Positions 14,093 through 17,773 of a stretch of 28,269 nt of DNA are shown here, in pieces. The translations under genes were made by a program, and so were the position numbers. The DNA is from an uncultured archaeon. Its GTDB lineage: Archaea > Asgardarchaeota > Thorarchaeia > Thorarchaeales > Thorarchaeaceae. The notes beneath the pieces are model-generated. The model made no database searches. It worked only from the letters and a program-made list of their open reading frames with translations, and had not been told where the DNA came from. The stretch is taken from the NCBI GenBank assembly GCA_964610875.1, contig CAZSWP010000028.1, positions 28,364-56,632 of the forward strand, in the 5' to 3' direction. The stretch's first letter is position 1, and every line of letters begins with the position of its first letter.

Positions 14093-14899
14093 ATGACAGA
14101 GGAATTACCAAATACGAGCGATACTGCAAATGCGATCTGGGCAATAAGGAATGAAATCCAAGAACTAGAAAATTCAAAGGATGAGATTATCTCATATCTT
14201 AGAAAAGAGCTAGAGCTAGCAGAATCTGAAGACCATGTATGGATAGGTGATGCGAAGGAAGTATACTACAACATCGTAGCTGCTTGGCAGTTCCTTAATT
14301 CATGCCTGCGACAGGAATCTGAAAAACAAAAGGAGAAAGCAAATTCCAGTTTGAAATTTCTCGAAAAGGCAAAAAGTTACCTAGGTCAATCAGCTAGTGA
14401 ACTGAAAGCACTAAAGAAAGATCAAGCGGCAAAACTGGAGAAGAAATGGAAAGACACTTTCGACACATGCTTTGAGAGTATCTCATTACAACTGGAGAAA
14501 TTCCTAGGTTCACAGAAAGGCAATGTACCTTCTGAATTAATTGAGATGGTTGAGAAGGATGCGTATACTCTTTCCTGTACGGTCTGTGGAAAGGTCACTA
14601 CTGTTTTTATTAGGAGAAAGAAACATTTCGTATATTCAGGGATGCTGATTGAAACACCTCTACGGTATGACTTGGCAGACAAAGTTTTCGAATTCCTGAA
14701 GAAAAAAGATCTGAAGGGTCTACAACAATTTCTTCTGAAAAAATCAAAACTTGAAGAAGGGATGGATGCCTACTGTCCAGAGTGTGATTCAATCTACTGT
14801 CCACTTCATTATGATTTTGAAGAAGAATGGGATGAAGGGTTCTATGACTGTACATATGGAACATGCCCTGAAGGTCATAGAAGAATGGTTCACGATTAG
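14093..14899 (+). CDS. Hypothetical protein: helical N-terminal half, Cys/His-rich C-terminal domain
   Basis: 268 aa ORF with CTVCG ... YCPECDSIYCPLH ... GFYDCTYGTCPEGH. Confidence 0.75.
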   Translation: MTEELPNTSDTANAIWAIRNEIQELENSKDEIISYLRKELELAESEDHVWIGDAKEVYYNIVAAWQFLNSCLRQESEKQKEKANSSLKFLEKAKSYLGQSASELKALKKDQAAKLEKKWKDTFDTCFESISLQLEKFLGSQKGNVPSELIEMVEKDAYTLSCTVCGKVTTVFIRRKKHFVYSGMLIETPLRYDLADKVFEFLKKKDLKGLQQFLLKKSKLEEGMDAYCPECDSIYCPLHYDFEEEWDEGFYDCTYGTCPEGHRRMVHD

Positions 14900-14952: not shown

Positions 14953-14970
14953 GGAAAAGAAAAGAAGGAA
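14953..14970 (-). terminator. Pyrimidine/U-rich tract after the second SECIS-like copy, putative archaeal terminator
   Basis: Minus strand TTCCTTCTTTTCTTTTCC, in the same position as the tract following the first copy; lies between convergent genes. Confidence 0.45.
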
Positions 14971-14973
14971 TAA

Positions 14974-15042
14974 GCGAGCAACTCTTGCAGGGTCGTCCAG
15001 CTCACCCAAATTTCGGTTGAGCGTTCATCCACCACCCAGCAC
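14974..15042 (-). repeat. Second, diverged copy of the vhuU 3' end plus SECIS-like element
   Basis: Aligns to 16237-16306 at 60/70 positions (9 transitions, 1 gap). Minus strand GUGCUGGGUGGUGG-AUGAA-C-GCUCAACC-GAAAUUU-GGGUGAGC-U-GGAC. Confidence 0.9.
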
Positions 15043-15134
15043 TAGGTCACTTCTGGATGTTTCACACATCCCTCAACCAACAACCGATGAATCATTATTT
15101 CTTACAAAGAAATAAACTGGTTGTGAATGGATAA

Positions 15135-15695
15135 TCAATCCCTACTACTTCGTAGATAGCCTTTCTTGAATTCTAACCACACATCAAGAATACCGAGCGA
15201 GTTACATACTTCTTGAATGTATGCTTCATCCAATTCATCTTCATGTCTAGCAAGGATTCCAAGTGCATCCCGCATATCCTGCTCACCTTGAAAGAACAAT
15301 TTGTTGATGAGAGTGTCTTCAGGAGAACCAAGGTTCAGTGTAATCCCCAAATGGTGAACCTTAATTGCTCTCTCAAGAGTCCTCCTATCGAAGTGCGAAT
15401 TCGCATTTTGTAGGTCAAGTCGTAGAAGGCTATCATCCACAAAAACAGTACAGTGACTTCCTTCTTGTAGTAAGTTCTTCATGGTTTTAGGTTCAACATC
15501 AAAATGGTTTTTATGCAGATAAGAAAACAATGCATCAATTTGTGAATCATTCAAATCAAGAATGAAATCAATATCTACAGTTGTACGAGGAACACCGTGA
15601 TACATTACAGCAATCCCTCCTACAATGACATATTTCATATCATTTTCATTGAGATAGCTGCATACGATCCGCAGTGTTTCTTCAATGTCCGTCAT
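15135..15695 (-). CDS. Nucleotidyltransferase (Pol-beta superfamily; AbiEii/MenT1/DUF6036-like), putative toxin
   Basis: IVGGIAV...PRTTVDIDF (GG + RxTxDxD) and SPEDTLINKL....QDMRD. The ATG at 15695 overlaps the upstream small ORF and is preferred over the GTG at 15707. Confidence 0.8.
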   Translation of the reverse strand: MTDIEETLRIVCSYLNENDMKYVIVGGIAVMYHGVPRTTVDIDFILDLNDSQIDALFSYLHKNHFDVEPKTMKNLLQEGSHCTVFVDDSLLRLDLQNANSHFDRRTLERAIKVHHLGITLNLGSPEDTLINKLFFQGEQDMRDALGILARHEDELDEAYIQEVCNSLGILDVWLEFKKGYLRSSRD

Positions 15696-15846
15696 CTTTC
15701 CTTGCACCTGCCGTTTCTAATGCGATCTTGGAGAGCTCTAACCCCATGATCAATGTATCAATTCCGGTGAACCCTCTTGCTCTAATCGCAGTCATAATCT
15801 GCTCCCTATCTCGACGCTTTCGGACTAGCTCTTTCTGAGTTGACAT
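15682..15846 (-). CDS. 54-aa helical protein, putative cognate antitoxin (not in the ORF track)
   Basis: Manual translation MSTQKELVRKRRDREQIMTAIRARGFTGIDTLIMGLELSKIALETAGARKDDGH*. Overlaps the nucleotidyltransferase start by 14 nt; GTGA RBS-like motif upstream. Confidence 0.65.
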   Translation of the reverse strand: MSTQKELVRKRRDREQIMTAIRARGFTGIDTLIMGLELSKIALETAGARKDDGH

Positions 15847-16215
15847 CAAATCACACATTCTAGATGTTACTATTGCTGATATATTCTCCTTTTCAAAAAA
15901 ATTGTTTCTGATGGTGGGAGCGATTCTTTCTGGTGTGTTTTAATCTACTATCAAATTGAGTATGCTCAGAAAAGTATGTCTGTGAGATTAAATAAGATAT
16001 CCAATGAAACTATCGATTTATCGATATAGATTATGGGCCAGCAATTGCAGAAATCGTTGAATGGTGACCAGTTACTCATGTACATCCATAGTCCCAGATT
16101 TCTGAATTTGATAATTAAACCTCATCAATATCCCTTAGTCAAATTCACTCTGTAAAAAAACAACTACAACAGGTATTAAGAATATTCAAGAATATAATCA
16201 AATGAGTACTTTGAT

Positions 16216-16234
16216 AAAAAAAGAAGGAAGGAAA
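16216..16234 (-). terminator. Oligo-U/pyrimidine tract ending the hdr-mvh-vhuU operon
   Basis: Minus strand TTTCCTTCCTTCTTTTTTT immediately after the GC-rich SECIS structure. Confidence 0.6.
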
Positions 16235-16236
16235 GC

Positions 16237-16306
16237 GCGGGCGACCCTTGCGAGGTCGTCTAGCTCAACCCAAGTTTCGGTTAAGCGTTCATCCACCGCC
16301 CAGCAC
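16237..16306 (-). promoter_or_regulatory. Eukaryote-like SECIS element of vhuU
   Basis: Minus strand AUGAA-C-GCUUAACC-GAAACUUG-GGUUGAGC-U-AGAC: UGAN/NGAN core with tandem G.A pairs, an 8-bp upper helix and apical AAA. A lower helix GGGCGG/UCGCCC is possible. Lies about 84 nt downstream of the in-frame UGA. Confidence 0.85.
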
Positions 16307-16438
16307 AAGTTCCTTCGTTGCTATCTCGCGACCCTCATCGTCCACAATCGTTAGATGAGCGCCGCAGGATAGTCAGCAGTCATAGCACCGCACAACCATC
16401 TCGAGGAGGTTGAGCAGTCCTTCGGGTATTTCTTTCAT
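16289..16438 (-). CDS. vhuU: Selenocysteine-containing small subunit of F420-non-reducing [NiFeSe] hydrogenase (VhuU-like), 49 aa, Sec22 (not in the ORF track)
   Basis: MKEIPEGLLNLLEMVVRCYDC-U-LSCGAHLTIVDDEGREIATKELVLGGG*. The in-frame TGA at 16373-16375 occupies the first Cys of the DPCxSCxxH Ni-binding motif. GAGGT RBS at 16448-16452. The upstream MvhA lacks this motif. Confidence 0.93.
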
Positions 16439-16453
16439 TTTGATATTACCTCT

Positions 16454-17773
16454 CTAGTCTACTTTTACCATTGGTTCAGGTAGGGTGAGGGATTCATGGA
16501 CTTTATCCTCAAAGACTTGCTTTGCGGCATCCATGACTGATTTCTCAATACCTGCAATGTTGTTGTTCGTCGCTACAATGAGATTAGCATGAGTCAGAAT
16601 GCCATCCTCATCGCACTCGTAGTTATGAAGGAGGGTTCCACGTGGTGCTTCTACGATACCAACACCTTCACCAGCCTTCGGTTCAACGTCTGCCAGCTTC
16701 ACATCAGTACTAACAATATCTGGATCTTCTAACAATATCTTAATCCATTCTACCGCTTGCACAGTTTCAACTATTCGTGCGTAATGATATGCGAAGGTAT
16801 GATGTGAAGGTCTCCCAACTAATTCGCGCATCTCCTTTAGAGCAGCATCAGCTAATGGGGTAGCCATCTTATCAGCTACGTTACATCTTGCCAATGTGTT
16901 AGCTCGCCAGATACCGTCAGGGTAACCAGCAGGTTTGTAATAGATGTGTGTCGCGTAGGAATGATTGGGTATATGTTCGCCATAGTACTTGGTGTAGTCC
17001 TTTGGCTCAAAGTCAGCAACAATCTTTCCATCAGGGTCCATAACACGGACATTCCCATCATAGATGTCCAGTACACCGTTGTTTGTAAGACCAAGATAGT
17101 ACGTAGGAGTGACTGCCACTTTTGTGACAACGTCAATGTAATCCGTTACTACCTTCTTTGCCAAGTCAACAGTTGCATGAGTCAGATCAAGCAGTTCAGG
17201 CACCTGTTTCAACCATTTGTCTCTGTCCTCTTCAGGAAGAGCATGTAGTTGACCACCAGGAATTGCGGTCACTGGATGAATCGCTTTTGCACCGATGTCA
17301 CGAATTAATTCCTGTCCAAATTGCATCATCTTGATAGCTTGCACAGCAACATCAGGGAGATGCTTCAAGACAGCAGCAACATTTCTCAAAGATGGATCTG
17401 CAAAGGGTCCAAACACAAAGTCAGGAGCAGCTAGTGCATAGAAGTGAATCATGTGTGAGGAGAGTTGCTTCGCCTCTATCATGAGTCTTCTCAATTTCAC
17501 TGCAGCAGGAGGTGGAGTAATGTCCCAAGCATCCTCAACCGCTTTCACTGAAGCAAGATGATGAGGAATAGGACAGATACCACAGATTCGTGGAGCGATG
17601 CGTATAGCTTCCTCCATCGGTCTTCCAACTAGAAATTTCTCAAAGAATCTAGTACTTCCAACGTTGAACTGTACATCTTTGACCTTACCGTCCTTGCCAA
17701 GTTTCACAGTCAGTGCACCATGGCCTTCAAGGCGTGTCACTGGATCAATTCGGATTGTCTTTTCCTCAGTCAT
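16454..17773 (-). CDS. vhuA: F420-non-reducing (group 3c) [NiFe] hydrogenase large subunit, split VhuA form
   Basis: IDPVTRLEGHG, RFFEKF, RICGICPIPH (L1 motif), VEAPRGTLLH, NLIVAT. No C-terminal DPCxxC motif. Confidence 0.93.
   Translation of the reverse strand: MTEEKTIRIDPVTRLEGHGALTVKLGKDGKVKDVQFNVGSTRFFEKFLVGRPMEEAIRIAPRICGICPIPHHLASVKAVEDAWDITPPPAAVKLRRLMIEAKQLSSHMIHFYALAAPDFVFGPFADPSLRNVAAVLKHLPDVAVQAIKMMQFGQELIRDIGAKAIHPVTAIPGGQLHALPEEDRDKWLKQVPELLDLTHATVDLAKKVVTDYIDVVTKVAVTPTYYLGLTNNGVLDIYDGNVRVMDPDGKIVADFEPKDYTKYYGEHIPNHSYATHIYYKPAGYPDGIWRANTLARCNVADKMATPLADAALKEMRELVGRPSHHTFAYHYARIVETVQAVEWIKILLEDPDIVSTDVKLADVEPKAGEGVGIVEAPRGTLLHNYECDEDGILTHANLIVATNNNIAGIEKSVMDAAKQVFEDKVHESLTLPEPMVKVD

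Follow-up and report, generated by a model that had tools for sequence, protein, structure and literature searches.

The vhuU 3' end as a candidate recombinational cargo slot in Thorarchaeota, with a degraded SECIS copy behind a MenAT1-like gene pair

In a 28,269-nucleotide stretch of DNA from an uncultured archaeon of the Thorarchaeaceae (assembly GCA_964610875.1, contig CAZSWP010000028.1; hereafter the window), a truncated copy of the 3' end of the selenoprotein gene vhuU, including its selenocysteine insertion sequence (SECIS), lies behind a two-gene nucleotidyltransferase cassette that itself follows the intact vhuU gene. The explanation that we favour, with modest confidence, is that the vhuU 3' end in Thorarchaeota is a recombinational cargo slot, and that the second copy in the window is its scar. 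Genomes are labelled G0xx and loci L0xx below, G000 being the genome of the window.

The repeated unit is about 97 nt long and consists of the last nine or so vhuU codons, the stop codon, the SECIS, a second hairpin and a pyrimidine tract. All genes relevant to the locus are on the minus strand, in the order vhuA, vhuU, copy A of the unit (16219..16316), cassette and copy B (14955..15053). Local alignment of the two copies (16219-16316 against 14955-15053) gives 82 identities in 97 positions, spanning from 27 nt before the end of the stop codon to 70 nt past it; an extension of the homology of copy B upstream of -27 into vhuU was not significant (p = 0.16). With copy A as query against the whole assembly, BLAST matched copy B with 85% identity over 72–73 nt (E 3.1e-16). 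The first-pass annotation, made from the letters of the window, had reported a direct repeat 1263 bp apart, and this is confirmed by both comparisons (start-to-start distance 1263–1264 nt). Its description of the parts also holds: VLGGG-TGA, an AUGA-stem-loop-GA element, a second small hairpin and a pyrimidine tract are common to both copies, and between them are only AT-rich DNA, a small open reading frame (ORF; 58/54 aa) and an overlapping nucleotidyltransferase gene (190/186 aa). No Rfam family was matched within the window. By BLAST and a covariance model of the unit (R1, built from 16 vhuU SECIS regions of relatives), only three copies could be identified in the 3.75-Mb assembly, the third being the SECIS of a second vhuU gene. 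R1 finds no further genomic copy, which rules out a dispersed repeat and a generic terminator, two possibilities that the annotation had set against its own proposal.

The vhuU gene itself (16289..16438, minus strand, 49 codons, as read from the sequence) has its in-frame selenocysteine (Sec) TGA at 16373-16375, the nickel-ligand position, in the context RCYDC-U-LSCGAH, and the same in-frame TGA is kept in vhuU of 15 related loci. Copy A contains its tail codons, a Loki-type SECIS (hairpin 1), hairpin 2 and the pyrimidine tract, and is, judging by its sequence, a working SECIS of the normal Lokiarchaeota type. It scores 78.7 bits with R1, compared to 77.4–91.4 bits for the 16 elements in the model and values down to 63.9 bits for weaker genuine elements elsewhere in the family. 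The AUGA is found directly 5' of the stem and the GA 3' of it (GGA-TGA-A...stem...A-GA-C), and these flanking positions are invariant in the 16 elements as well as in 33 aligned elements. Among the 16, hairpin 1 has double changes in seven of its eight pairs, with 97.7% of cells paired; for hairpins 1 and 2 together, 8 of 11 pairs have double changes and 98% of cells are paired, versus 11–55% in slid registers. Hairpin 2 (NCC-YYGCAAG-GGN) covaries at its closing pair.

The Loki-type SECIS is known as an AUGA, a stem of about 9 bp and an A-rich loop ending in G, followed by GA (Mariotti et al. 2016, PMC4989117). Copy A corresponds to it in its AUGA, in its covarying stem of 8–9 bp, in its A-rich loop ending in G, and in its GA; moreover, the vhuU stop codon (TGA, 16289-16291) doubles as the UGA of the AUGA core, an overlap known for Loki VhuU.1 (PMC4989117). 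It differs in the apical loop GAAACUUG (in this genus and the relatives closest to it, 8 nt instead of 11), in the presence of the second conserved hairpin and of a conserved CTCCTTCC block after it, and in the truncated extra copies, which are unreported for the Loki type. The CTCCTTCC block, which is non-coding, lies 3' of the SECIS and is conserved across genera, is complementary to GGAAGGAG in the vhuU tail codons (RKE; columns 12–19 and 104–111 of alignment A8), and the window has a matching variant pair at 16219-16316 (GAAGGAA/TTCCTTC). In this candidate helix 87% of cells are paired, against 56–74% in slid registers, with weak covariation; the GGAAGGAG-CTCCTTCC pairing may be the closing helix of the whole element.

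Copy B is composed of about nine vhuU tail codons (SDLVLGGG-stop), a degraded SECIS and the pyrimidine tract, with no vhuU body upstream. Its score of 61.7 bits with R1 is 17 below that of copy A and under those of all 16 model-building elements. Hairpin 1 has suffered a 1-nt deletion in its 3' strand, an invariant GGG has become GAG by a G to A change, one base pair has been lost per helix, and hairpin 1 is no longer formed in the minimum free energy fold. Copy B serves no upstream Sec gene either, the enzyme ORF before it having no internal TGA and only a TGA stop. With these features copy B appears unlikely to be a functional second SECIS, and the best reading is that it is a decaying scar of the cargo event. 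The first-pass annotation had also considered a SECIS-linked regulatory cassette; the SECIS-breaking changes in copy B and in most distal copies elsewhere argue against it. In two states copies A and B agree with each other and not with the g8 consensus, and private changes are about three times as many in copy B as in copy A; this is consistent with a duplication more recent than the genus split and relaxed constraint on copy B thereafter.

It is the family-wide context that leads us to regard the window arrangement as the product of a recurrent process and not as a one-off. Among 86 genomes of the family, that of the window included, R1 detected the unit in 66, and 12 of the 86 (again including the window's) have two or three same-strand copies, 0.15–4.8 kb apart. 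Local scans revealed further, weaker distal copies in L016, L018, L050, L055, L056, L065 and L078. From the side of the cargo, 14 of 23 Thorarchaeota loci that were found via the enzyme alone lie 230–450 nt behind a unit, and the remaining ones include toxin-antitoxin islands with VapBC-like pairs. The distal copies are always 3' fragments of vhuU in which the Sec codon is never included, with a constant right edge (+70 to +99, the end of the pyrimidine tract) and a variable left edge (-65 to +16). Most of them are visibly decaying, by a change of AUGA to AUAA or ACAA, by broken stems, or by the G to A change also seen in the window. The DUF6036 cassette is the bracketed cargo in the window, in G052 (with the same architecture), in G076 and in G056; other bracketed cargo comprises HepT+MNT and DUF433+DUF5615 pairs, an alpha/beta hydrolase, an 806-aa protein, AsnC-type regulators and a saccharopine dehydrogenase. 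The window-like layout is also present in independent metagenome-assembled genomes (MAGs), e.g. on a 916-kb contig of G052.

At L038 (G056:C152, 23-2228), a saccharopine dehydrogenase gene and the cassette lie between two units (65 and 57 bits, 94% alike), and the UGA of the distal copy terminates the enzyme ORF. This array is found directly behind a 659-aa gene, presumably encoding a phosphoenolpyruvate carboxykinase judging from the start of its sequence, with no vhuA or vhuU nearby; it is either a translocated module or part of a rearranged or chimeric contig. At L044 (G060:C164, oriented 2274-2341), a badly degraded unit is located between the genuine SECIS and the cassette, 80 nt behind the SECIS, so scars can lie on either side of the cargo.

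Several observations point to recombination at the slot. First, in G085 and G087, two species of one genus, the hydrolase and 806-aa modules are swapped in order behind vhuU; the blocks are 93–97% identical and their boundaries overlap exactly in the units. Secondly, in genus g4 the slot is found between the same two flanks with the cassette (L017) and without it (L013). The right flank of the slot is itself variable: the convergent 268-aa gene of the window (14093..14899, plus strand), the stop codon of which abuts the T-rich tract of copy B, is present in 5 of 85 relatives, in none of them adjoining the unit. The empty site for which the first-pass annotation had suggested a search, with an ortholog of this gene directly behind one SECIS, was seen in none of the genomes searched. 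Thirdly, several distal copies are nearer to a foreign genuine SECIS than to their own (identity 0.78 to own vs 0.92 to foreign, 0.60 vs 0.72, and 0.67 vs 0.85). Integration by a single crossover predicts such foreign-like distal copies, because the incoming unit becomes the proximal one and the resident unit the distal one; simple local duplication does not predict them. Finally, on the sequences compared, the enzyme and VhuA trees disagree: the sister of the window enzyme is a copy located away from vhu (support of 96 in the Shimodaira–Hasegawa-like approximate likelihood ratio test, SH-aLRT), the window VhuA is sister to that of L065 (95), and the enzyme adjacent to vhu in L065 belongs to the other deep clade (99). 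The state of being next to vhu requires at least 6 changes on the enzyme tree.

We propose that the recombining unit extends from the last 10–20 or so codons of vhuU through the SECIS and the second hairpin to the pyrimidine/T tract. Unit-bearing DNA would enter via a single crossover within the unit (Campbell-type, the crossover mechanism being inferred), by which the vhuU-proximal copy would stay intact and a second, useless copy would be left behind the cargo. Selenocysteine insertion would be preserved, since the proximal copy remains intact. Later crossovers between copies could excise, re-insert and permute modules, and the agent would be either host homologous recombination or a trans-acting recombinase. 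The cargo in the window would be 1.26 kb of AT-rich DNA and the MenAT1-like pair, with copy B as the decaying scar. The direct repeats of the target 3' end that flank the insert, next to an intact vhuU, are what duplication of an attachment site would leave. The first-pass suggestion that a selenoprotein gene end with its SECIS was used as an attachment site is therefore upheld in part: the recurrence across the family and the duplicated 3' end of the target support it family-wide, the mechanism is a proposal, and the window taken alone cannot separate insertion from duplication.

A number of points weigh against this proposal. The trees were built quickly, with SH-aLRT support, and the existence of vhuA paralogs can give a false impression of incongruence. 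No circular or empty-site form was seen among the genomes searched; the orthologous vhu loci of the nearest genus (L026, L077, L079 and L080) have a single unit and no cassette, with right flanks that are not conserved. No recombinase could be identified in or near any array examined; the window, as the first-pass annotation had already observed, contains no integrase, and its genome has a single tyrosine recombinase, XerA-like and on another contig. The integron integrase profile TIGR02249, positive in all 14 control genomes, had no match in G000, G011, G016, G020 and G022. Some distal copies (G061, G085) score like genuine SECIS elements, which could reflect selection rather than recent arrival. 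The origin of the first duplication is left unexplained. Finally, copy B in the window is 0.83 identical to its own copy A and 0.80 to the best foreign SECIS, and as it is about equally close to both, the window event could be a local duplication.

Such a local duplication without mobility is the strongest of the alternatives, and we consider it possible albeit clearly less probable than the cargo slot. The cassette would then be an old, vertically inherited neighbour of vhuU, and the vhuU terminator region would have been copied to the far side of the cassette by template switching, unequal crossing-over or gene conversion. This is consistent with the presence of the cassette behind vhuU in many genera at a conserved spacing, as well as with the two shared non-consensus states of the window copies and the slightly greater likeness of copy B to its own copy A. 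It accounts less well for the disagreement between the enzyme and VhuA trees, for distal copies at other loci that match foreign SECIS elements better than their own, for heterogeneous cargo that is permuted between congeners, and for the occurrence of the cassette in toxin-antitoxin islands far from vhu.

It is rather improbable that copy B has been kept because it is functional, whether by providing the cassette and the convergent 268-aa gene with a terminator or 3'-end structure, or by acting as a second SECIS. In the latter case, the UGA stop of the enzyme gene would be recoded, to give an 11-residue Sec-containing extension. In keeping with a function, copy B retains the AUGA, the GA and seven of the eight pairs of hairpin 1, with one change from U.G to C-G; the enzyme gene ends in TGA about 93 nt before it, and in G056 the enzyme ORF ends on the UGA of the distal copy itself. 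Past the enzyme gene of L016, a hairpin and T-tract have been kept via a compensatory change, and in all distal copies no part is better preserved than the pyrimidine block. In contrast, the deficit of 17 bits, the loss of the stem base and of an invariant G and the unfolded hairpin 1 speak against it, other distal copies have lost the AUGA itself, and the putative extension of the enzyme is not conserved. Recoding of the enzyme stop was rejected also on the basis of 12 homologs, six of which end in TGA and six in TAG, with no link to a downstream copy.

We give similarly little credence to a more far-reaching version of the cargo slot, in which Asgard archaea would have a cassette system without an integrase and the vhuU-tail/SECIS unit would serve as its dedicated attachment site. 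Short gene cassettes, for the most part toxin-antitoxin modules, would then be captured, excised and shuffled behind a selenoprotein operon with high expression, either by a trans-acting enzyme or by host recombination guided by the folded SECIS hairpins; this would be an archaeal analogue of the integron built on a translational recoding signal. Integron cassettes are bounded by attC sites, and have also been reported in Archaea. The arrays resemble those of integrons in having short, promoter-poor or self-contained cassettes that are separated by a repeated hairpin-forming element, in being rich in toxin-antitoxin genes, in a cassette order that can permute, and in the SECIS stem of the window, GCTTAAC...GTTGAGC (16255-16285), which fits the attC core consensus (RYYYAAC...GTTRRRY). 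They differ in that no IntI-type integrase was found (in the five genomes mentioned), in that the repeat is a copy of a gene end and not an attC site, and in that the cargo can be on either strand. As no IntI was found, the attC-like fit of the stem is probably a coincidence.

An integron had been considered because of the ~90-nt repeats in G011:C2 and G016:C4 and the attC-like stem, and was rejected. These loci (L020, 1735-4529, and L022, 1012-3883) are VapBC/nucleotidyltransferase toxin-antitoxin islands with repeated intergenic regions, in which VapBC-like pairs and the cassette of small protein and DUF6036 enzyme alternate with an intergenic repeat of about 90 nt at a spacing of 0.9–1.9 kb; neither a unit copy nor an integron integrase was found in them. 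A virus or plasmid carrying the unit was likewise rejected, as the single pattern match in IMG/VR was a chance hit in a high-GC phage (7 bits with R1). A search of Joint Genome Institute (JGI) metagenomes for same-species contigs gave no exact match to two patterns.

An assembly artefact, in the form of a tandem fusion of vhuU 3' regions from two strain variants, is very improbable even for a 124-contig MAG with 5.8% contamination, as 15 of the 97 positions are different in the two copies, the sequence joined to the left edge of copy B is unique, continuous with the enzyme gene and without a shared k-mer or other shared sequence from which a repeat-induced misjoin could arise, and the layout of a cassette between two units recurs in independent assemblies.

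The cargo in the window consists of AT-rich DNA and a two-gene cassette, the genes of which are the only two ORFs between the copies. The AT-rich spacer (15895..16218, minus strand; 378 nt with 31.7% GC over 15859-16236) has no homolog in any locus compared, except for a conserved cassette 5' motif, GAAAAGGAGAATATA, at 15876..15894 (minus strand), about 25 nt before the ATG. In most relatives the AT-rich spacer is absent and the cassette starts about 90 nt past the vhuU stop. The GAAAAGGAGAATATA motif is the sole part of the spacer in common with the cassettes of L018 and L022, and similar ATAGTAGAATATA motifs are found upstream of the cassette in L016, L017, L012 and L015; it is likely the cassette's own TATA-type promoter, from which a leaderless transcript would be made.

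The first gene of the cassette (15682..15858, minus strand) encodes a small protein and putative antitoxin of 58 aa from the first ATG or 54 aa from the second, and overlaps the start of the enzyme gene. The protein is 50–58 aa long in relatives and is kept as the upstream partner in all cassette loci; no family or structure match was found in Pfam, PADLOC, NCBIfam or PDB, nor any relatives outside these cassettes. The second gene (15135..15707, minus strand; 190 aa from GTG or 186 aa from ATG, stop TGA) encodes a nucleotidyltransferase and putative toxin with a significant match to Pfam DUF6036 (1.3e-8, 35.2 bits at a cut-off of 23.6). Its score with AbiEii (PF08843) is 18.5 bits, under the cut-off of 22.5, and PADLOC and NCBIfam gave no match. 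An AlphaFold (AF2) model of the enzyme, built with 12 homologs, has a predicted local distance difference test score (pLDDT) of 91, and the top PDB matches of this model in Foldseek are 8AN5 and 8AN4 (MenAT1/MenT1; E 2.4e-8, template modelling (TM) score 0.70–0.72 over the full length); the match to 8AN4 at the sequence level is weak (E ~0.02). The catalytic GG...PRTTxDID motif is intact (VGGIAVMYHGVPRTTVDIDF) and is invariant or nearly so among homologs, except for D47, which is absent from three. In alignment A4 the D-x-D reads DIV in L022, DIN in L038 and GID in L020, so that one catalytic aspartate is lost in each; these three homologs may be inactivated toxins.

A complex of the two proteins was predicted with an ipSAE of 0.91, versus 0.01 for the best control. 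The former value is a mark that 58 of 80 solved complexes attained, as did 2 of 110 mismatched pairs. Contacts agreed between runs to at least 93%, and the partner had a pLDDT of at least 81. In the predicted complex the small protein lies on enzyme residues 32–44, the catalytic loop, and is thereby predicted to cap it. Since the MenAT1 complex (8AN5) has already been solved, the score shows likeness to it and not that the pair binds. The first-pass assignment to a MenA1/MenT1-type module is borne out at the level of the fold, with binding of the small protein as a prediction of the models.

With MenAT1 of Mycobacterium tuberculosis (Rv0078B-Rv0078A; 8AN4, 8AN5) the cassette shares a small upstream gene that overlaps a gene for a minimal nucleotidyltransferase of about 190 aa, the best fold match, the GG...R-x-T-x-D-x-D motif, and a small partner, predicted in our case, on the catalytic loop. 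The differences are a sequence identity of only 17–20%, a Pfam assignment to DUF6036 with AbiEii/DUF1814 below cut-off, a small protein with no detectable similarity to MenA1, and an archaeal host, in which the pair is known from sequence and models. By analogy, the enzyme would modify tRNA 3' ends, and its toxin activity is likewise inferred. The cassette extends MenT1-like nucleotidyltransferase modules to Asgard archaea.

Upstream of vhuU in the window, vhuA (16454..17773, minus strand) encodes a vhuA/mvhA-type [NiFe(Se)] hydrogenase large subunit in an ORF of 439 aa (Pfam NiFeSe_Hases, 3.9e-28) that does not include the C-terminal Ni-binding motif; its orthologs in relatives are in the same position and have 80–86% identity. 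In L039 (G052:C3, 828-2145), vhuA consists of two overlapping ORFs of 101 and 341 aa, which suggests a frameshift or a sequencing error. The 268-aa protein and a 507-aa protein have no family in Pfam, PADLOC, NCBIfam or PDB. The second vhuU of the window genome (G000:C28:8184-8393; L003, 1480-2100) is located about 36 kb away on the same contig, and is intact, with its Sec TGA and a SECIS of 87 bits. It stands alone, preceded only by about 35 codons of the start of vhuG and the end of a small gene encoding a winged helix-turn-helix-like protein, and looks like a paralogous vhu operon from which the G and A genes have been deleted and the selenopeptide gene retained.

Insertion hot spots at structured RNA genes (tRNA, tmRNA, selC) are textbook cases: tRNA and tmRNA genes host integrative elements and genomic islets at their 3' ends, with direct repeats of the 3' end of the target left behind, and selC, the gene for tRNA-Sec, is the site of islands in Enterobacteria. 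The arrangement behind vhuU resembles these in that direct repeats on both sides of the cargo derive from the 3' part of a gene bearing a conserved RNA structure, the gene stays functional through the proximal copy, several modules build up in tandem at a single site, and toxin-antitoxin modules are among the cargo. It differs in its target, which is the coding end of a selenoprotein gene with its SECIS and not an RNA gene, in the size of the modules (only 0.5–4.8 kb, 1–5 genes, never with an integrase), and in the variable left edge of the repeat, which is more in line with homologous exchange than with a strictly site-specific one. In the literature searched, including papers on the Asgard selenoproteome, neither duplicated SECIS copies of vhuU nor an insertion site associated with a SECIS was found to be described.

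To our knowledge, the mobile elements of Asgard archaea are poorly known. If confirmed, the slot behind vhuU would be a tractable case in which to study the movement of small gene cassettes, above all of toxin-antitoxin modules, in these organisms. Such a slot would also mean that a recoding signal can double as a recombination site, and that SECIS-based prediction of selenoproteins in Asgard genomes will meet orphan, non-functional SECIS copies.

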